Shown here piece after piece: positions 9,328-60,394 of a DNA stretch of 64,000 bases; positions within the stretch are counted from its first letter, which is position 1, and the number at the start of each line of letters is the position of its first letter. A program made the position numbers and the translations under genes. The notes under the pieces were generated by a model, which made no database searches, had not been told where the DNA came from, and saw only the letters and a program-made list of their open reading frames with translations. The DNA comes from Clostridiales bacterium (GTDB taxonomy: Bacteria > Bacillota > Clostridia > Oscillospirales > CAG-272): assembly GCA_021202555.1 (NCBI GenBank), contig JAJQCT010000032.1, positions 66,299 to 130,298 of the forward strand, written 5' to 3'.

Positions 9328-9484
9328 TATACCGACAACCTCCTTTTCTCTGCCCGCAAGGTAGCTTTCAAGCACATTACGCACGAAATATTCCTCCCTG
9401 CGTGCGCGTCGGACTATTCCGCTCCGCGGAATAGTCCCTACTTTCATTTCTTTGCTCGCTTTGCGGGCAAAGAAATGAATCGTT

Positions 9485-9835
9485 TGGAGGCGAGGGGAAT
9501 CGAACCCCTGTCCGAAAATCTCTCCCTGTGAATTTCTCCGGGCGCATGGCACCGAAAATCTCCCGCCGAGGCACACGATGCCCAAAGCACCTCGGGGAAA
9601 GCGCTTTAATGCGTGACCGCTTCAAGCGCGAAACGGCGGTTCACGTTCACCACAGTCGTGACGCCCGATATGAGGTCGTGGTCCCCCTCATAAAGGACGC
9701 GCCGCACTTAGGCAGCGAGTGCTAATTCTTCGTCGTTAGCAGTTAAAGTTTTAATTGGAGCCGTATTTAAGAACTTGCCCCATGCTCTGCCCGCTTATCA
9801 CCTATCAAAATCCCCGTCGAAACCTTTACGCCCCC
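9485..9835 (-). ncRNA. ssrA: tmRNA (SsrA), tag reading frame ANDEELALAA-stop
   Basis: 5' GGGGGCGTAAAGGTTTCGACGGGG. 3' tRNA-like end GGGGTTCGATTCCCCTCGCCTCCA. Tag GCTAACGACGAAGAATTAGCACTCGCTGCCTAA on the complement of 9708-9740. Lies 7 nt downstream of smpB. Confidence 0.93.
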
Positions 9836-10414: not shown

Positions 10415-11656
10415 TCACGTTTTTTTCTTTATCGCATCCCAGTAAGCCTCGGCGGCGCGCTCCGTTTTGTTGTCGCCGAATCTGTAATATTTCTTGTCCT
10501 TCACGTCGTCGGGCAGATACTGCTGCTCAACCCAGCGATTCGGGAAATCGTGCGGGTATTTGTACCCGTCGAAAAGCGGCGCGTGAAGATGATGCGGCAC
10601 CGTCTGCCCAAGCCCCGCCTCAACGTCCGCCATCGCCGTCTCGACAGCGACACAGGCTGTGTTCGATTTCGGCGCCGTCGCGAGCATAACGGCAGCGTTT
10701 CCGAGCGGAATCTGCGCCTCGGGCATTCCGAGCTGCTTTGCCGCCTCGCAGCATGAATACGTTATCGCCGCCGCCATCGGGTACGCAGCGCCTATATCCT
10801 CGCTCGCAATTACGAGAAGCCGCCTGCATACGGAAAGAATATCGCCGCCCGCGAGAAGCCGAGCCACATAAAACACTGCGGCATCGGGGTCGGAGCCGCG
10901 AATCGATTTCTGCAGCGCCGAGAGCAAATCATAGTGAACGTCACCGTCGCGGTCAAATGAGCCGTATGACGCGGACGAGAGCGCCGCGAACGTCTCGGGC
11001 GTTATCTCCTCCTCGGCAATGTAAAACGCATTTTCAAGCAGCGTTATCCCGTGACGCACGTCCCCTGCCGCAAATGACGCAAGCTTCATAAGTGTGTCGT
11101 CGCTCGCCGTCACCGTCCGTCCCTCCTCGGCGCATAAAAAATCGAGCGCGCGGCGAAGTGCCGGCGCAAGGTCTCTCGGCTCGACGGGCTTGAATTCAAA
11201 GACGCTGCACCGTGAGAGAAGCGCCGAATAAATGGAGTAGTATGGATTTTCCGTCGTCGAGGCGATGAGGGTCACGCGCCCGTCCTCGATATATTCGAGA
11301 AGCGACTGCTGCTGCTTTTTGTTGAAATACTGAATCTCGTCAAGATAAATTAAAATCCCGCCCGCGCCGAATATATCGGAGGTTGATTTGAGCGCGCTTT
11401 TCACGTCGGACAGCGTCGCCGTCGTCGCGTTGAATCTGTAAATCTTCATCTCGGCGTGCTTCGCGACGATTTCGGCTGCGGTCGTCTTTCCCGTGCCCGC
11501 GGGACCCGAGAAAATCATGTTCGTCACGCGCCCCGCATCAATGAGGCGGCGAAGCGCGCCGTGACTTCCCAGAAGATGGCGCTGACCGACCATTTCGTCG
11601 AAGCTTTGGGGACGAACTGCGTCCGCGAGCGAGCGATTTCTCATATTTTTAACCAT
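10415..11656 (-). CDS. rarA: replication-associated recombination protein A (AAA+ ATPase)
   Basis: Walker A GPAGTGKTT. Walker B IYLDEIQYFNK. MgsA C-terminal block (LHAPLFDGYKYPHDFP). Confidence 0.92.
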   Translation of the reverse strand: MVKNMRNRSLADAVRPQSFDEMVGQRHLLGSHGALRRLIDAGRVTNMIFSGPAGTGKTTAAEIVAKHAEMKIYRFNATTATLSDVKSALKSTSDIFGAGGILIYLDEIQYFNKKQQQSLLEYIEDGRVTLIASTTENPYYSIYSALLSRCSVFEFKPVEPRDLAPALRRALDFLCAEEGRTVTASDDTLMKLASFAAGDVRHGITLLENAFYIAEEEITPETFAALSSASYGSFDRDGDVHYDLLSALQKSIRGSDPDAAVFYVARLLAGGDILSVCRRLLVIASEDIGAAYPMAAAITYSCCEAAKQLGMPEAQIPLGNAAVMLATAPKSNTACVAVETAMADVEAGLGQTVPHHLHAPLFDGYKYPHDFPNRWVEQQYLPDDVKDKKYYRFGDNKTERAAEAYWDAIKKKT

Positions 11657-11802: not shown

Positions 11803-11861
11803 TAAAAAATTGCCGTGAACGGAAAAGGCACTGCGGCAATCACCGCAGCACCTTTTCTGTA

Positions 11862-11934
11862 CGCGCCCTAAAGGATTCGAACCTTCGACCTACCGGTTCG
11901 TAGCCGGGCACTCTATCCGCTGAGCTAAGGGCGC
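11862..11934 (-). tRNA. tRNA-Arg (anticodon ACG)
   Basis: Cloverleaf read by hand: acceptor GCGCCCT/AGGGCGC, anticodon loop CUACGAA, T-arm GAAGG-TTCGAAT-CCTTT. CCA is not encoded. Confidence 0.9.
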
Positions 11935-12119
11935 ACGCTTTCTCAAGCATTTAATATTATATCACGTTTTTTTCGGTTGTCAAGGGGTAAATCGAAAAAA
12001 ATCAAAATTTTTGTTTCGCAGGCTTTCGCCCCGTTGTGATTTACCGCAATTTTACCGTTTTGTTTACAGTTTGTTCGCACATATTCGCGCCGCGTGTGGT
12101 ACAATATCAGCGTAATGAT

Positions 12120-23638: not shown

Positions 23639-24631
23639 ATGAAGAAGATTATTTTGACGGCAGTAGCGCTCATGCTCGCTTTGTCAATGCTCGCGCTCCC
23701 CTCATGCACGACGGAGGGAGAAGGTGACGACACCGACGCGGCGGGTACAAATTCGTCGGACACGACGTCAGGAAATGTAAGCTCGGGCGACACAACGTCT
23801 GACAGCGACGGAAACGACGACAGCACGGCAACATCGTCGCGCTACACAAACTTTGACCTGCGCACTGATTACGACGAGGATGAGGCAGTGACGGTCGTAT
23901 TCACCGACGAGGCGATAACGCTCTCGGGAAATGACACGTCGGGCGCGACGGTGGACGGCACGACGCTGACGATAACGGCTGAGGGAACGTATGTGATTTC
24001 AGGCTCATGCAGCGACGGACAGATTATCGTCGAGGTATCGGACACCGAAAAGGTTCAGCTTGTATTTAACGGAATTTCGCTCATGTGCAAGACGAGCGCT
24101 CCCGTATGGGTAAAGTGTGCCGACAAAACGTCGATAACGCTCGCTGACGGCACGACGAACACAATGCAGGACGCAGCGTCGTACACCGACGTAAACACTG
24201 ACGGCGAGCCGAACGCCTGCATTTTCTCAAAGGACGACCTGACAATCAACGGCACGGGAACACTCAACGTCTACGCGAACTGCAACAACGGAATAACCTC
24301 AAAGGATGACCTCAAGATTATAAGCGGCATAATCACAGTAACGGCTGAAAATCACGGCATTCGCGGAAATGACAGCGTTACAATAAAGGACGGCACAATT
24401 TCGGTTTCATGCGGAAACGACGGCATCAAGGCGTCGAACACGACGAAATCAGACAAGGGCTATATCTACATTGAGGGCGGCACAATTACAATCGACTGCG
24501 GCGACGACGCGCTTCAGGCAATAACGTCAATCGACGTGACGGGCGGCTCGATTACAGTCTCCGCCGCGGGTGATGTCACAAACTGCGAGGGCACGGTAAA
24601 TCTCGCCGACGGCTGCGTAACGGAGCAGTAA
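23639..24631 (+). CDS. lipoprotein with Cthe_2159-like beta-helix carbohydrate-binding domain
   Basis: Lipobox LALPSC. Ser/Thr/Asp linker. Repeated G(I/D)..(K/N)D.(L/V).I..G motifs. Confidence 0.55.
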   Translation: MKKIILTAVALMLALSMLALPSCTTEGEGDDTDAAGTNSSDTTSGNVSSGDTTSDSDGNDDSTATSSRYTNFDLRTDYDEDEAVTVVFTDEAITLSGNDTSGATVDGTTLTITAEGTYVISGSCSDGQIIVEVSDTEKVQLVFNGISLMCKTSAPVWVKCADKTSITLADGTTNTMQDAASYTDVNTDGEPNACIFSKDDLTINGTGTLNVYANCNNGITSKDDLKIISGIITVTAENHGIRGNDSVTIKDGTISVSCGNDGIKASNTTKSDKGYIYIEGGTITIDCGDDALQAITSIDVTGGSITVSAAGDVTNCEGTVNLADGCVTEQ

Positions 24632-24635
24632 TTGA

Positions 24636-24914
24636 GTGAAATCGAGACGGTTGACATCGGTCAACCGTCTCGGATAAATCCGCGCTTCGCGCGGGTAAAA
24701 TCCGTCGCTGACGCGACGGGTTAATGAAAAAAGCCACCTCAACGCTTCGCTTTTGAGATGACTTTTATTCAATTAAAAGTCCGTAGGACTTTTTACCTTA
24801 ACCCGCACAAAGTGCGGATTTCACCGAGTATTCGCCGCAGGCGGATGCTCGATTTCACCTGCCCGAAGGGCAGATTTCACCGTCTCAAAAGCTTTGCTTT
24901 TGAGACGATTTAAC
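24636..24914. repeat. type-1 hairpin array A (9 hairpins on GTGAAATC / GATTTCACC linkers)
   Basis: Linkers at 24636, 24673 and 24695 (GTGAAATC-type) and at 24818, 24851, 24873 and 24907 (GATTTCACC-type). Parsed by hand. Confidence 0.85.
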
Positions 24915-25007: not shown

Positions 25008-25205
25008 ATGAAAATACGCTACAATGACGACAAGGAAATCGTGCGCCTCGTGAAGGAGGGACTGCGCGAGCGCGGCGGATACTGTCCCTGCCGCCGTGAA
25101 ATATCCGAGGACACAAAATGTATGTGCCGCGAATTCAGAGAGCAGATTGCAGACCCCGAATTTGAAGGCTACTGCCACTGCCGTCTCTACTATAAGGAAA
25201 AATAA
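25008..25205 (+). CDS. small ferredoxin-thioredoxin-reductase catalytic-subunit-like Cys-rich protein
   Basis: CPCR, CMC and CHC cysteine pattern in 65 aa. Lies immediately upstream of thioredoxin. Confidence 0.55.
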   Translation: MKIRYNDDKEIVRLVKEGLRERGGYCPCRREISEDTKCMCREFREQIADPEFEGYCHCRLYYKEK

Positions 25206-47089: not shown

Positions 47090-48514
47090 ATGGATATAAA
47101 CGAGACTGTCGCGGCAATATCGACACCGCACGGAACGGGCGGGATTTCCGTTATCAGGGTATCGGGCGAGGATGCCGTCAATATCGCCTCCCGCGTCTTT
47201 GTTCCCGCGTCGGGAAAGCCGCTCCTCGCCTCGGAGCACGCCCGCGCCGGATACGGGAAAATTTACTCGCGGGGGAAGGTCATTGACGACGGGATTGCAG
47301 TCGTATTTTACGCGCCCCGCTCGTACACGGGCGAGAACGTCGTCGAGATTTCATGTCACGGCGGCATTCTTGTGACAAACCGCGTGCTTGAAGCGCTTTT
47401 TTCGGCGGGAGCGGCGCCTGCTCCGGCAGGCGAATTTACGCGGCGCGCGTTTCTGTCGGGAAAGCTGACGCTTTCCGAGGCGGAGGCTGTCGGCGACAGG
47501 CTTTACGCGCGCACGGACGCGCAGCTCTCGCTCGCCTCGCCCGAGGCGGCAGGGAGGGTTTCGCGCGCCGTATCGGGCATCGCTGAGCGCATTATGTCGC
47601 TCATCTCCTCGCTTTCCGCCGTAATTGATTATCCCGACGAAGAGCTGACCGAGACGGGACGAGAGGACGTGTCGGCGGAGTGCGAAAAAATCGGCGCAGC
47701 TCTCACATCGCTCCTTGCGACATACGATACGGGACGTGCCGTCACGCTCGGAATCGACGCGGCTATAGTCGGTCGCCCGAACGCGGGCAAAAGCACGCTT
47801 TTCAATCTTTTTGCCGGCTGCGAGCGCGCGATTGTGACAAATATTGCGGGAACGACGAGAGACGTGATAACGGAGGACGTGTCTGTTGACGGCGTGATGC
47901 TGCATATATCGGACACTGCGGGCGTTCGCGGGACGGATGACGAGATTGAGGCGCTCGGAGTTCGCCGCGCCCGCGCTGCGGCGGCGGGCGCCGAGCTTGT
48001 GATTATAGTTATCGACGCGACAGACACGAACACGTCGGCAGACGTGTCTGCGGATGTATCCACGGATATATCCGTTCTACTCGACGAGCTTGACGTGGCG
48101 GGCGGGGACAGGACAGCTCTCGCGGTAATCAACAAAACGGACGAGGCGGAGCCCTATCGCGTCGAAAAGATAAAAAAAGCGCTCGATTTGCGCGGAATTT
48201 CCTCCGTTGAGGCGTCGCTTTTGAGGGGGGAAGGGTTTGATGAGATAAAGCGCTTCATAAAGGAGCGGTTCACCGACGGGGAGCTGTCGCTCTCGGAGGA
48301 CGCGATAATCTCAAACGCGCGGATTTCGGCGGAGATTTCGGCGGCGGCTGACGGGGTGATTTCCGCCGGACGCGCGTCGTCGGCGGGAATGCCGGCGGAC
48401 ATTGTTATAACGGAGCTTGAGGGCGCATACGGGGCGCTTATGCGCGCTGACGGACGAGAGGTAACGACTGCGGTTGTGGATGAAATTTTCGGCAAATTCT
48501 GTGTAGGCAAATAA
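47090..48514 (+). CDS. mnmE: tRNA modification GTPase MnmE
   Basis: G1 GRPNAGKST, DTAG, NKTD, and a C-terminal FCVGK. Confidence 0.95.
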   Translation: MDINETVAAISTPHGTGGISVIRVSGEDAVNIASRVFVPASGKPLLASEHARAGYGKIYSRGKVIDDGIAVVFYAPRSYTGENVVEISCHGGILVTNRVLEALFSAGAAPAPAGEFTRRAFLSGKLTLSEAEAVGDRLYARTDAQLSLASPEAAGRVSRAVSGIAERIMSLISSLSAVIDYPDEELTETGREDVSAECEKIGAALTSLLATYDTGRAVTLGIDAAIVGRPNAGKSTLFNLFAGCERAIVTNIAGTTRDVITEDVSVDGVMLHISDTAGVRGTDDEIEALGVRRARAAAAGAELVIIVIDATDTNTSADVSADVSTDISVLLDELDVAGGDRTALAVINKTDEAEPYRVEKIKKALDLRGISSVEASLLRGEGFDEIKRFIKERFTDGELSLSEDAIISNARISAEISAAADGVISAGRASSAGMPADIVITELEGAYGALMRADGREVTTAVVDEIFGKFCVGK

Positions 48515-48543
48515 ATCGCGTGAGCGATTTATTTGCCTACACA
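48500..48543. repeat. 20-bp perfect-stem palindrome built from the last 15 nt of mnmE and the 5 nt that follow
   Basis: TGTGTAGGCAAATAAATCGC-gtga-GCGATTTATTTGCCTACACA. The stop TAA at 48512-48514 lies inside the left arm. Confidence 0.9.
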
Positions 48544-48550
48544 GTTAAAT

Positions 48551-48591
48551 CAAAGTAATCGTCAAGTGCTATGCACTTGACGATTACTTTG
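48551..48591. repeat. 19-bp perfect-stem palindrome, possible terminator
   Basis: CAAAGTAATCGTCAAGTGC-tat-GCACTTGACGATTACTTTG, followed by TAACTTTTT. Confidence 0.85.
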
Positions 48592-48603
48592 TAACTTTTT
48601 CAC

Positions 48604-48632
48604 TTGAAAAAAAATTATTTTTGTGCTATAAT
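48604..48632 (+). promoter_or_regulatory. promoter TTGAAA-17-TATAAT
   Basis: Upstream of the CarD-like gene. Confidence 0.6.
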
Positions 48633-52340: not shown

Positions 52341-52374
52341 AAGTAGATTATATCATAAAAGTGCGCTAAACCGC

Positions 52375-52645
52375 AAATATTCAATGAAAAACATAGATTT
52401 TCATTGAATATTTGACAGACTTGACGATGCAAGCTGTGCTTGCATCGTCAATGTCTTGCGCTGTACCGTGAATATTGCGCTGCGCGCAATATTCATCAAC
52501 TTGCAGAATGAATCTGCGATTCATTCTGCAATGTTGTGTTATCATAAATTGAGCGGAAAACCGTGAATATTTTCCGCGAATCACAGATTCGCGGAAAATA
52601 TTCATCAACTTGAACAACAAAGCTATGCTTTGTTGTTCAATGTTG
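52375..52645. repeat. type-2 nested palindrome array (lead hairpins plus two full double units)
   Basis: Hairpins at 52375-52413 and 52417-52456. Units at 52468-52536 and 52563-52645. Confidence 0.85.
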
Positions 52646-55820: not shown

Positions 55821-55874
55821 TTTGCTTGCGTATTTTATTTGCGCAATAAAGATAATCCGAAAGAGGGAATTACT

Positions 55875-57614
55875 TTGAAGAAAAAGCTTTTTTTCATTTT
55901 GTTTGTTACAGCGGCTGCGGCTGCGATATTAATGTTTTCGTCATGCAGCTCGGGCGACAGCACGTTCGGCGTGAGATTCAACGTCTATGACGATTACGCG
56001 GAGGTATCCGAATATGTGGGCGGCTCGGCTGATGTCGTCGTGGGAGACGAATACAAGGGCGTTCCCGTCACGAAAATCGCCGACGGCGCCTTCAAGGATG
56101 AGGAAATCACCTCGATAACGCTTCCCGATTCGCTCACGACAATAGGAGCGAACGCATTTGAAGGCTCGACGCTCGAAACGGTCACATTCGGCTCGGGGCT
56201 TACCGAAATAGGCGATTTTGCGTTTTTAGGCTGCACGTCGCTTTCGTCGGTTGAGATTCCCGAGGGCGTGACTAAAATCGGCGAGGAGGCATTCGCGGGC
56301 TGCACTTATCTTACGTCAGCGACGCTGCCCTCGACGCTGACAAGCCTCGGCATGAGCGCGTTTTATCAGTGCGCGTCGCTTTCGTCGATAACGCTTCCCG
56401 ACAGTCTCACGTCAGTTCTGTACGGCACGTTCTGGCAGTGCATAGCGCTCAAATCTGTGACGCTCGGAGATGCCGTGACGGAGATAGGCACGAGCGCGTT
56501 TGCCGAATGCACCTCGCTTTCATCGATAAATATCCCCGACACCGTGACCGAAATCGGCGCATACGCCTTCATGAGCTGCTCGGCTTTAACGGAGATGGTG
56601 ATTCCCGAGGGCGTGACGGTGATTGAGACGGAGTGCTTTTATCATTGTACGTCGCTTGCAACCGTTTCGATACCCTCAACGGTGACCGAAATCGGGGATT
56701 CGGCGTTCATAAACTGCACCTCGCTTTCATCGATAACTCTTCCCGACGGGCTGACAACTCTTGGGGATTCCGCGTTTGAGGGCTGCACGTCATTGACGGA
56801 GCTTATTATTCCCGAGTCTCTCACCTCGCTTTCGACAAGCGCGTTTTATAAATGCTCATCTATCGAAACCGTATCATTCCCCGAAAATTTCTCCTCCTTC
56901 GGAATAAGCTGCTTTGCATACTGCTCGTCCATAACGGAGATTGTGATTCCCGATACGGTGACGGCAATTCCGATAAGCTGCTTTGCTTACTGCACCGCTC
57001 TTGAAAGCCTGACAATCCCCGACACGGTGACGTCGATTTCCGACACGTGCATTGACGGGGACACGAATATTGTGATTTACACATGGTCGGATTCATACGC
57101 CGACTATTGGTCAAAGGAAAACGGAAAGACGATAGTATATCTCGGAGAGGCTGAAAATGTCTATGAGGAGCCTGATACGGGGACTGTATGGCTCTCATCC
57201 TCGGAGCTTCTCGAGCTTGCCGAGTATTACGCCGACATCTGGGCGGATGAAATTCTCGCATACGACGTGAGGTTTGACGGCGGGTCGTATTCCGTCGAGA
57301 TTGAGACGCTCACGGGAAAGCATACGTTTGCAGTATCAAACAACGGGGAGATTACCTCGTACACGTTCGACGAATACGCAAGCGCGCTTTCAAGCGTCTG
57401 GGGTACTGCCGATGAGGCGGAGGAGCTTGCGCTTGCGGACGCGGGATATACGAGAGATGACGTATGGTACGTCAATTCGTATATCGAATATTCCGACGGC
57501 ACGCCGTATTTTTACGTCGTGAGCTTCAGACTGCGCGACGAGGATGTGTCGTTTGAGTATAAAATCCACATTGTAAGCGGCTCGATAACAAGCAGGGCAC
57601 AATATGAGCAGTAA
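55875..57614 (+). CDS. BspA-type LRR lipoprotein with C-terminal PepSY-like repeats
   Basis: Lipobox MFSSCSS. About 14 LRR units (IP..VT.IG..AF..C..L). C-terminal region with TGKHTFAVSNNGEITSY and FEYKIHIVSGSI. TTG start with an AGAGGGA RBS. Confidence 0.75.
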   Translation: MKKKLFFILFVTAAAAAILMFSSCSSGDSTFGVRFNVYDDYAEVSEYVGGSADVVVGDEYKGVPVTKIADGAFKDEEITSITLPDSLTTIGANAFEGSTLETVTFGSGLTEIGDFAFLGCTSLSSVEIPEGVTKIGEEAFAGCTYLTSATLPSTLTSLGMSAFYQCASLSSITLPDSLTSVLYGTFWQCIALKSVTLGDAVTEIGTSAFAECTSLSSINIPDTVTEIGAYAFMSCSALTEMVIPEGVTVIETECFYHCTSLATVSIPSTVTEIGDSAFINCTSLSSITLPDGLTTLGDSAFEGCTSLTELIIPESLTSLSTSAFYKCSSIETVSFPENFSSFGISCFAYCSSITEIVIPDTVTAIPISCFAYCTALESLTIPDTVTSISDTCIDGDTNIVIYTWSDSYADYWSKENGKTIVYLGEAENVYEEPDTGTVWLSSSELLELAEYYADIWADEILAYDVRFDGGSYSVEIETLTGKHTFAVSNNGEITSYTFDEYASALSSVWGTADEAEELALADAGYTRDDVWYVNSYIEYSDGTPYFYVVSFRLRDEDVSFEYKIHIVSGSITSRAQYEQ

Positions 57615-57629
57615 TGCTCATATTGAGCA

Positions 57630-57937
57630 GTGAAATCGCCGCTACGCGGCGGATAAATCCGCACTTCGTGCGGGTGAAATCACAGCAAATGCAAAGCATT
57701 TGCTGTGGTGAAATCCGTCGCTTTAGCGACGGGTTAAAGAAGCCTCTTAAAAGCTTTGCTTTTAAGAGGCAGTTTAATTTAATAGTCTTTTCAAAGTCTA
57801 TGCTTTGAAAAGACTTCATAAACCGCTGCGAAGCAGCGATTTCACCCTGCCTGTGCGATAGCACGGGCAGGATTTAACCCGACCGTAAGGTCGGATTTCA
57901 CCCCGCGGGAGCTTTTATGGCTCCCGCGGGATTTCAC
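57630..57937. repeat. type-1 hairpin array B (10 hairpins on GTGAAATC / GATTTCACC linkers)
   Basis: Linkers at 57630, 57652, 57674 and 57708 (GTGAAATC-type) and at 57839, 57871, 57894 and 57931 (GATTTCACC-type). Confidence 0.9.
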
Positions 57938-59876: not shown

Positions 59877-60137
59877 TCAGTCGTCGTAGTGACCCCTGCA
59901 TGAGACAATTTCAAGTACGCCCGCCCGAATGCGATAGACAAGCCTGTTTGTTTCGTCGATTCGTCGGCTCCAAAAGCCGCTCAAATCGCCTTTCAGCGGC
60001 TCGGGTTTGCCTATTCCGCCGAAATTTTGACGTTCAATATCTTTCAACAAAGCATTTATACGTTTGAGAGTTTTCTTGTCCGTCGTCTGCCAGTACAGAT
60101 AATCCTCCCACGCTTCGTCAAACCAAATCTTTTTCAT
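59877..60137 (-). CDS. yoeB: YoeB/Txe-family type II toxin (mRNA interferase)
   Basis: FDEAWEDYLYWQTTDKKTLKRINALLKDI......GIGKPEPLKGDLSGFWSRRID..NRLVYRI signature, ending in HY. Confidence 0.9.
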   Translation of the reverse strand: MKKIWFDEAWEDYLYWQTTDKKTLKRINALLKDIERQNFGGIGKPEPLKGDLSGFWSRRIDETNRLVYRIRAGVLEIVSCRGHYDD

Positions 60138-60394
60138 TCGTCGTCCTCGAGCGTCTCATGCTCCGTTCCCTTTCCCGCGTTAAGCGCGGCGATTCCGCGA
60201 AGCAGATGCTCCATGTTTGTGTCCGAATAAAACGGGTCTGCCGTAATCTCAAACGGGATTCTGCGCTCCCTGCCGACCTTTGTCGCGAAAATCGTGAATG
60301 CCGTCGTCATGCTCATTCCCATGTCGCGGCAGACGCTCTCCATTTTCTCCTTCACCGCCTTGTCCATGCGGAAATTAACCATTACCTGCGCCAT
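60134..60394 (-). CDS. type II antitoxin with RelB/DinJ-like N-terminal RHH
   Basis: MAQVMVNFRMDKAVKEKMESVCRDMGMSMTTAFTIFATKVGRERRIPFE resembles DinJ. Acidic C-terminal tail. 4-nt overlap with yoeB. AAGGAGG RBS. Confidence 0.75.
   Translation of the reverse strand: MAQVMVNFRMDKAVKEKMESVCRDMGMSMTTAFTIFATKVGRERRIPFEITADPFYSDTNMEHLLRGIAALNAGKGTEHETLEDDE

Follow-up and report, generated by a model that had tools for sequence, protein, structure and literature searches.

Array B, a mirrored chain of hairpins between convergent genes

In the 64,000-nt stretch of Clostridiales DNA analysed here (the window), a BspA-type leucine-rich repeat gene on the plus strand and a DUF6807/PmoA-family gene on the minus strand converge on a gap that is filled by a chain of short hairpins, which we call array B (57615-57937). 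Array B consisted of eight linker-flanked, GC-clamped hairpins, two central hairpins and one edge hairpin, 11 in all, and was organized as two mirror halves around the two terminator-like central hairpins, with GTGAAAT or its reverse complement as the flank (Table 1). A first-pass annotation of this DNA had described ten hairpins strung on a conserved linker of 8-9 nt. The chain was confirmed, but the count had to be raised to 11 and the constant core of the linker reduced to 7 nt, bases 8-9 being the C and the G that close each hairpin. The architecture proposed there, a short constant linker with variable palindromic filler in two mirror halves, was upheld, and the stop codon of the right-hand gene (TGA, complement of 57934-57936) was indeed located inside the last linker. 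The stems of array B were all different, and two of them (CCGCAC.. and CCGTCGC..) recurred in a sister array on the same window, array A.

The arrangement was tested against random expectation. The motif GTGAAATC occurred 14 times in the window while 2.9 occurrences were expected, and 10 of the 14 were within the two arrays. GTGAAAT immediately followed by a perfect hairpin with a stem of 5 bp or more was found nine times against an expectation of 0.14, the maximum among 200 dinucleotide shuffles being 2, so that the predicted enrichment of linker-hairpin combinations was borne out. Compared with shuffled sequences, the fold of array B had a z-score of -20.7 on the plus strand and -17.8 on the minus strand.

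Both halves of array B matched the Gut-1 RNA family of Rfam (RF01706), the left half on the plus strand with 43.1 bits (E = 3e-7) and the right half on the minus strand with 36.9 bits (E = 1e-5). Array A gave 43.5 bits for the left half on the plus strand and 29.2 bits for the right half on the minus strand. These matches of A and B were found with permissive thresholds and are below the gathering score of 50 bits (E values from 3e-7 to 1e-3), because of the long hairpins and the linker variants of the window copies. Arrays of the same architecture in relatives passed the gathering score, with 50-76.5 bits. The RF01706 consensus, CAaUGAAAU-hp-GUGAAAU-hp-GUGAAAU-hp-GUGAAAU (hp, hairpin), was aligned over positions 1-77 to both halves of array B, and the three consecutive hairpins with (G)UGAAAU linkers that define Gut-1 are present in array B with abutting units. 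The alignments of the window halves spanned the model from one end to the other.

Gut-1 was described from 43 representatives, all from human-gut metagenomes and none from a sequenced organism, as probably a non-coding RNA (PMC2864571), and was classed as RNA with stem covariation (Weinberg et al. 2010, PMC2864571). The arrays resemble it in having at least three short GC-rich hairpins, (G)UGAAAU separators, stem covariation and an origin in gut-metagenome Clostridia. The published description covers one half only, without host, gene context or function, and the mirror architecture reported here is fuller; the 2010 seed alignment already includes the tRNA, the terminator, the array and its mirror half, with the linker GUGAUAU/AUAUCAC. 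Our literature search found nothing later than PMC2864571 on Gut-1, and nothing linking the arrays with the protein family PF05635 discussed below. The first-pass annotation could assign the architecture to no known repeat class, and had itself named copies of a described family as an outcome that would speak against its finding. The RF01706 matches on both halves refuted that assignment and weakened the claim of novelty. We concluded that the gap is occupied by a genuine mirror-image array of the Gut-1 kind which is not a product of chance, and that array B is a mirror-image orphan version of this known motif, itself of no known function.

When tested for a GC-containing stem and a T-rich tail, the hairpin at 57742-57770 qualified as an intrinsic terminator on both strands, and hairpin 8 with its ATTTCACTT tail also scored as terminator-like. 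With each unit read outward as a GC hairpin followed by AUUU, the gap could be taken for a plain stack of redundant intrinsic terminators insulating two convergent genes. Such a stack would leave unexplained, however, why the 7-nt linker is invariant across species, why arrays are found after a strong terminator and before a promoter, and why linker types track a protein (see below), and we consider it very improbable. A promoter scan showed no promoter-like site within the arrays, thus transcription from the centre outwards is unsupported.

All linker variants of the window (57630-57937 and 24636-24914) held TGA or TAA, and with the common unit length of 22 nt the stops of successive linkers fall in all three frames. 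The statement that every linker carries a stop codon was therefore true of the window, but it did not extend to other loci, since GAGAAAT linkers were found in L096, L037 and L140. The linker stop codons may be a by-product.

Table 1. Components of array B in order along the window, with its sister array A. Strands are given where the element has an orientation.
Feature	Position	Strand	Remark
TAA stop of BspA-type leucine-rich repeat gene (55839-57614)	57612-57614	+	left edge of gap
Edge hairpin TGCTCA-tat-TGAGCA	57615-57629		immediately 5ʹ of first linker
Unit 1: linker GTGAAAT + hairpin CGCCGC-tac-GCGGCG	57630-57651	+	
Unit 2: linker GATAAAT + hairpin CCGCAC-ttc-GTGCGG	57652-57673	+	
Unit 3: linker GTGAAAT + hairpin CACAGCAAATGC-aaa-GCATTTGCTGTG	57674-57707	+	long hairpin
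Unit 4: linker GTGAAAT + hairpin CCGTCGC-ttta-GCGACGG	57708-57732	+	
Inner linker GTTAAAG	57733-57739	+	degenerate
Central hairpin 1, 13 bp	57742-57770		terminator-like on both strands
Central hairpin 2, AGTCTTTTCAAAG-tctatg-CTTTGAAAAGACT	57784-57815		AT-rich
Inner linker TCATAAAC (as read on + strand)	57816-57823	-	degenerate
Unit 5: hairpin CGCTGC-gaa-GCAGCG + ATTTCAC	57824-57845	-	GTGAAAT on - strand
Unit 6: 26-nt hairpin + ATTTAAC	57846-57878	-	one T.G pair on + strand
Unit 7: hairpin CCGACC-gtaa-GGTCGG + ATTTCAC	57879-57901	-	GNRA-type loop on + strand
Unit 8: hairpin CCCGCGGGAGC-ttttatg-GCTCCCGCGGG + ATTTCAC	57902-57937	-	
Array A, sister mirror array	24636-24914		Gut-1-like

Array A, related loci and the turnover of units

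Array A was located between the stop codon of a plus-strand gene (24629-24631) and the start of the next plus-strand gene (ATG at 25008). Upstream it is bordered by the stop codon of a Cthe_2159-domain gene, and downstream by a ferredoxin-thioredoxin-reductase-like/thioredoxin operon with its promoter and start. The left half had three units, in which the linkers GTGAAAT, GATAAAT and GTAAAAT are each followed by a hairpin, the AT-rich centre contained a hairpin at 24775-24793, and the right half had four units of a hairpin followed by ATTTCAC or ATTTAAC. The left halves and centres of the two arrays were homologous, with one additional unit in array B: units 2 and 4 of B correspond to 24673-24694 and 24695-24719 of A, while unit 3 was missing from A. 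The two copies of unit 2 differed by a compensatory change (CGCGC/GCGCG in A, CGCAC/GTGCG in B). Pairing of left with right linkers within one strand was considered and not adopted, as the linker variants of A and B, compared by eye, lacked position-by-position covariation. The first-pass annotation had also proposed that each half faces one gene. This did not hold, because the same mirror layout was present between the co-directional genes at array A and in arrays placed between a tRNA terminator and a promoter. The mirror symmetry belongs to the element itself.

The carriers of such arrays were searched by pattern scans of species-representative genomes and metagenomes, in which a true array was defined as at least three abutting units with distinct stems. 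True arrays were found in 27 loci, and all loci with an organism title belonged to gut or rumen Clostridia. Those non-Clostridia matches of the three-linker pattern that were inspected were plain tandem repeats, and the 25 pattern matches in viral contigs included no true array. These results firmly showed that the Gut-1 array family lives in gut and rumen Clostridia. Two metagenome contigs, L173 (2.1 kb) and L156 (2.3 kb), each held two or three arrays of the Gut-1 type in a span of about 2 kb, with short open reading frames between them; in L156, a methyltransferase was placed between two copies of one array.

Contigs near-identical to the window were found in two Logan assemblies. A close relative was a 21-kb locus in a metagenome-assembled genome (L305, GCA_021199515.1) with 92.5-96.6% nucleotide identity in the flanks, and the nearest species representative showed 80% identity in lacto-N-biose phosphorylase. 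No arrays were present at the syntenic sites in GTDB representatives (59% identity in DUF6807, 62-80% in lacto-N-biose phosphorylase). The arrays are lineage-restricted, relatives of 59-80% identity having none at these loci, which were therefore of no use for following turnover.

Comparison with L305 showed how the array changes. Units 8, 7 and 5 and the centre were near-identical to those of array B, with a difference of one loop base in unit 8 and one substitution in the centre. At the position of unit 6, however, L305 had an unrelated 42-nt hairpin with the linker GTGAAAT in place of GTTAAAT, and of the four units in the left half three, including unit 3, were absent. The loop of central hairpin 1 (57754-57758) was inverted in L305 (~11250-11260), reading AAA in one and TTT in the other between identical arms, which looks like a palindrome flip. 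Between array B and L305, whole-unit events at linker boundaries outnumbered point changes, in agreement with the expectation that hairpins turn over while linkers persist.

The replacement of whole units by unrelated sequence between close relatives is also what a CRISPR-like acquisition array would produce, in which the hairpins are captured foreign fragments made palindromic by snap-back synthesis. The long hairpins, however, had no match in 50,697 phage records and no donor in the sequences compared, and the viral pattern matches contained no true array. Furthermore, most arms are 5-7 nt, which is too short to carry information, and the annotated neighbours included no cas-like genes. We find this explanation hardly credible.

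Several other features of the window were recorded. Downstream of mnmE (48500-48612), two long perfect hairpins with 20-bp and 19-bp stems were connected by a single GTTAAAT linker, with a T-rich hairpin after them, and the corresponding gap in L305 (17495-17800) contained different hairpins. At 52374-52640, a 'type-2' hairpin array was found, with paired long hairpins TGAATATT...AATATTCA and TTG...CAA and the constant joints CCG / TCAAC / TGTTGTGTT; the alternation of joints with hairpins was repeated three times, and this family was abundant in the intergenic regions of L305 (8820-9190, 13030-13345 and 13530-13850). A RelB/YoeB toxin-antitoxin pair was encoded on the minus strand at ~59877-60394 and also in the Logan twins (L123, 8251-8768), and was absent at the same site of L305. 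The genes of the transfer-messenger RNA (tag ANDEELALAA; 9484-9835) and tRNA-Arg(ACG) (11861-11935), both on the minus strand, were not followed by a Gut-1 array.

The prototype locus beside a PF05635 gene

A prototype of the mirrored array was found next to the gene of a four-helix-bundle (4HB) protein of 110-115 aa, which belongs to PF05635/TIGR02436 (23S rRNA intervening-sequence protein, or four-helix-bundle protein). A genome scan with an alignment of the 4HB protein gave at least 588 relatives, of which the best 80, each from a different species, were taken. In these 80 loci of gut and rumen Clostridia (L225-L304), the 4HB genes were 68-100% identical. A mirrored array was present directly upstream of the 4HB gene in 76-78 of the 80 species, and a tRNA gene, of at least 12 types in total, was present just before the array in 60 of the 80 loci. 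The prototype order, which was shared by many of the pattern matches, was the tRNA 3ʹ end, a bidirectional terminator, the distal [GTGAAAT-hairpin] half, the proximal [hairpin-ATTTCAC] half, a promoter and the 4HB gene, and the module started immediately after the encoded CCA of the tRNA (also in L164, L140, L142, L171, L177 and L166). The sigma-70-type promoter began at or overlapped the last linker, for example as GATTTCAT directly followed by TGACTT-17-TATAAT, and 10-12 of 12 consensus positions were matched in 45 of 79 loci. The arrays of these loci passed the gathering score of Gut-1, with 50-76.5 bits. The placement of the prototype array, with a tRNA terminator on one side and the promoter of a PF05635 gene on the other, is firmly shown.

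Homology between loci began sharply at the outer end of the array, and the terminator of the module was homologous between loci. The combination of at least 12 tRNA types with a homologous terminator suggests that this is a compact module which moves to the 3ʹ ends of tRNA genes. In one genome (L069, 500-2212), a large serine recombinase gene immediately preceded the array-4HB module, a hint that the module may travel on an integrative element. In 362 kb of sequence from 4HB-bearing genomes, orphan arrays were found at about one per 28 kb, some with other linker types.

The arrays could also be a selfish or neutral palindromic repeat like REP (repetitive extragenic palindromic) sequences or MITEs (miniature inverted-repeat transposable elements), spread and reshuffled by recombination or by a mobilising activity and without host function here, whose perfect stems and uniform linkers are maintained by self-correction of palindromes and gene conversion. 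In favour of it are an array of about 185 nt with sharp homology boundaries that occurs in unrelated contexts and twice on one contig, the terminator-array-4HB module right behind the encoded CCA of so many tRNA types, whole-unit indels and replacement between very close relatives, and the absence of arrays at the syntenic loci of relatives with 62-80% identity. However, no target-site duplication was visible by eye at A or B and no transposase-like gene was linked. The linker was conserved across distant Clostridia lineages and the loop classes were strongly strand-specific, which argues for selection by a reader rather than drift. We therefore regard a purely selfish repeat as quite unlikely.

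The linker types of the proximal half across the loci were ATTTCAT in 48, ATTTCAC in 26, ACTTCAC in one and ACATCAT in one, and in 65 of 70 loci the distal half had the matching type as its reverse complement. L225 and L282 are two modules of one genome with different linkers. The linker type was associated with residue 4 of the 4HB protein, which was Ser in 24 of 25 G-type (GTGAAAT) loci and Asn in 47 of 47 A-type (ATGAAAT) loci; L286 (GTGAAGT, Ser) and L166 (ATGATGT, Asn) also agreed with this rule. Residue 7 was Arg in 19 of the 25 G-type loci, while Ala or Val accompanied Asn4. When a tree was built with those columns left out, the association of residue 4 with the linker appeared repeatedly, in several of its branches. 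These results firmly showed that the conserved and co-varying element is the linker rather than the stems. Judged from the sequences, Ser4/Asn4 is a candidate specificity determinant, or may be a linkage artefact.

The hairpins were analyzed for the strand on which they are selected. In a first set of related loci (97 hairpins with 599 stem pairs), 94 of the 97 hairpins opened with C and closed with G, and 581 of the 599 pairs were Watson-Crick. Wobble asymmetry was rejected as a strand test, as this set had two G.T and three A.C pairs; loop classes and G.A pairs were informative instead. On the ATTTCAY strand the loops were GAA, GCA, GTA and GGA (GNA type) and GAAA, GCAA, GTAA and GTGA (GNRA type), and the non-Watson-Crick pairs included 76 A.G/G.A pairs against one T.C/C.T pair, although the G.A pairs are not independent because most come from a single conserved position of the proximal hairpin. 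The loop classes and G.A pairs indicate that the folded and selected strand is hairpin-ATTTCAY, which is the reverse of the Rfam orientation of Gut-1 and is carried by opposite DNA strands in the two halves. The stems of the 4HB modules had 966 Watson-Crick pairs and 12 G.T or T.G pairs among about 1060. Compensatory double changes were found in 13 of 38 consensus pairs when 23 related arrays were compared. In 57 of 74 prototype arrays, the distal half was enclosed by an inverted repeat of 10-13 nt that existed in many versions, and the stems of five or more versions were clearly different. In array B its analogue is the linker and 5ʹ arm of unit 1 (57630-57642), which matched 57833-57845 as an inverted repeat at 12 of 13 positions.

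Such folding could mean that the arrays are structured RNA, transcribed as 3ʹ untranslated regions or small RNAs, whose hairpins block exonucleases and whose single-stranded linkers (GUGAAAU or AUUUCAC) are bound or cleaved by an RNA-binding protein or ribonuclease, the 4HB protein being one possibility, so that they work as a sponge or stabiliser. The classification of Gut-1 as RNA with covariation, the compensatory changes, the GNRA loops and tandem G.A pairs typical of RNA, and the position of the left halves of A and B between a stop codon and a terminator-like hairpin are all consistent with this. Avd proteins act on RNA in diversity-generating retroelements, which we count on the same side. 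However, one transcript would carry a half in each orientation, the favourable loops are on the strand opposite to that of Rfam, and the prototype arrays, with no promoter of their own detected, lie between a strong terminator and the 4HB promoter. In addition, G.U pairs were very rare (two sense-strand wobbles among 599 pairs, and 12 among about 1060), suggesting that both strands must stay pairable. RNA function is the strongest of the competing explanations, but on this balance we hold it doubtful.

A putative reader of the linkers and comparison with known systems

The PF05635 family is regarded as Avd-like (PMC10053308). The nearest solved relatives of the 4HB protein were 2rld and 2gsc, both five-chain crystal entries, and a defence-system library gave no match for it. 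In the reading that we prefer, with a probability of roughly 0.45, array B is a linker-coded hairpin platform, present as an orphan or satellite copy and read by a trans factor, probably an oligomeric Avd-like 4HB protein. Gut-1-type arrays would then be a family of modular cis-elements, carried by uncultured Clostridia of gut and rumen, in which specificity is carried by the 7-nt linker, clamped by the closing C-G pairs of the adjoining hairpins, and the varied GC-rich hairpins may serve as self-contained spacers that are unable to cross-pair. On the hairpin-ATTTCAC strand, the linkers between hairpins would be exposed as single strands on which the oligomeric protein docks, whether this strand is RNA or is DNA that has been extruded or is transiently unpaired. 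As the last linker abuts or overlaps the -35 box, docking would also control the promoter of the 4HB gene. The dispersed arrays A and B would be further docking platforms that accumulate on both flanks of bidirectional terminators, units may be swapped by recombination at the linkers, and the orphan arrays probably reinforce insulation or 3ʹ-end definition of the neighbouring transcription units.

Several observations weigh against a 4HB reader of array B. No PF05635 gene was found by tblastn within the 64-kb window, the part of the genome that this search covered. The signature of loops and G.A pairs demands a folded single strand, of DNA or RNA, and the halves in the window, if transcribed, run in the orientation with 'poor' loops. 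Orphan arrays of differing linker type lie less than 1 kb from some modules, and L230/L111 and L171 are exceptions to the association between linker and residue 4. Finally, with codon 4 no more than about 60 nt away from the array, co-evolution could be mimicked by mosaic recombination that moves the array together with the 5ʹ end of the gene.

The platform reading can be extended to the suggestion that Gut-1 arrays and the PF05635 protein are an unrecognised two-part system with an evolvable linker 'code', a relocating module and genome-wide seeding of orphan arrays. Ser or Asn at residue 4 would match the linker base G or A, displayed between arbitrary hairpins, and the module would relocate to the 3ʹ ends of many tRNA genes and seed the orphan arrays. 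The seeding would be like that of REPs by RAYT (REP-associated tyrosine transposase), but with a non-nuclease protein and variable stems. This extension is tentative, and we think it unlikely as it stands. If true, it would give the large orphan PF05635/TIGR02436 family its first partner outside diversity-generating retroelements. For Gut-1, the analysis adds hosts, the full mirror architecture, a conserved genomic home and a candidate reader with a candidate specificity residue, and the 4HB-linker hypothesis can be tested as a binding experiment. For annotation, dense hairpin chains in the intergenic regions of Clostridia are to be read as a family with rapid turnover of units, not as assembly noise.

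The arrays were compared with known systems. CRISPR arrays have identical direct repeats of 23-50 nt alternating with unique spacers of similar size, while here a constant element of 7-9 nt is combined with palindromic variable sequence and the orientation flips in mid-array. The attC sites of integrons have RYYYAAC...GTTRRRY cores and a 55-140-nt imperfect palindrome with extrahelical bases, and go with intI; the units of the arrays are 20-36 nt, almost perfectly paired and flanked by GTGAAAT, and no integrase was found among the annotated neighbours. The ends of the array are inverted as in MITEs (GTGAAATC ... GATTTCAC), but no target-site duplication was seen at A or B.

Type III toxin-antitoxin systems (ToxI/CptI) also place an array of short structured repeats directly upstream of the gene of a small oligomeric protein, with a terminator nearby. 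ToxI, however, consists of identical 34-45-nt direct repeats expressed from a promoter of their own, and its terminator separates the repeats from the toxin. The units of the present arrays vary and are arranged in mirror image, a terminator comes before them, and a strong promoter belonging to the 4HB gene lies between array and gene. CsrB, RsmZ and CrcZ resemble the arrays in presenting many copies of a short single-stranded motif on or between different hairpins. They are, however, transcripts of a single orientation with a promoter and a terminator and with GGA or A-rich motifs.

The likeness to REPs and to bacterial interspersed mosaic elements (BIMEs) is closer in placement. The arrays form extragenic inverted clusters near gene ends and terminators, as REP/BIME elements do; both are often at gene 3ʹ ends by terminators, have a hairpin with a short conserved flank, occur in inverted orientation in clusters, and combine a 'master' protein gene flanked by the element with many dispersed orphan copies. 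REP stems, however, are copies of one sequence, while here all stems differ except for the two homologous units and the linker is constant. The orientation switches once per array instead of alternating as in REP/BIME, the GTAG motif is absent, and the linked protein is a 110-aa four-helix bundle and not an HUH Y1 nuclease (RAYT). With the Avd of diversity-generating retroelements the 4HB protein shares its family, but neither a reverse transcriptase nor a template/variable repeat was noticed in those few module loci for which the adjacent open reading frames were examined. The habit of the Avd/PF05635 family of sitting inside or beside stable-RNA genes is common to both, the PF05635 23S rRNA intervening-sequence proteins being encoded inside 23S rRNA and the 4HB modules being located after tRNA genes.

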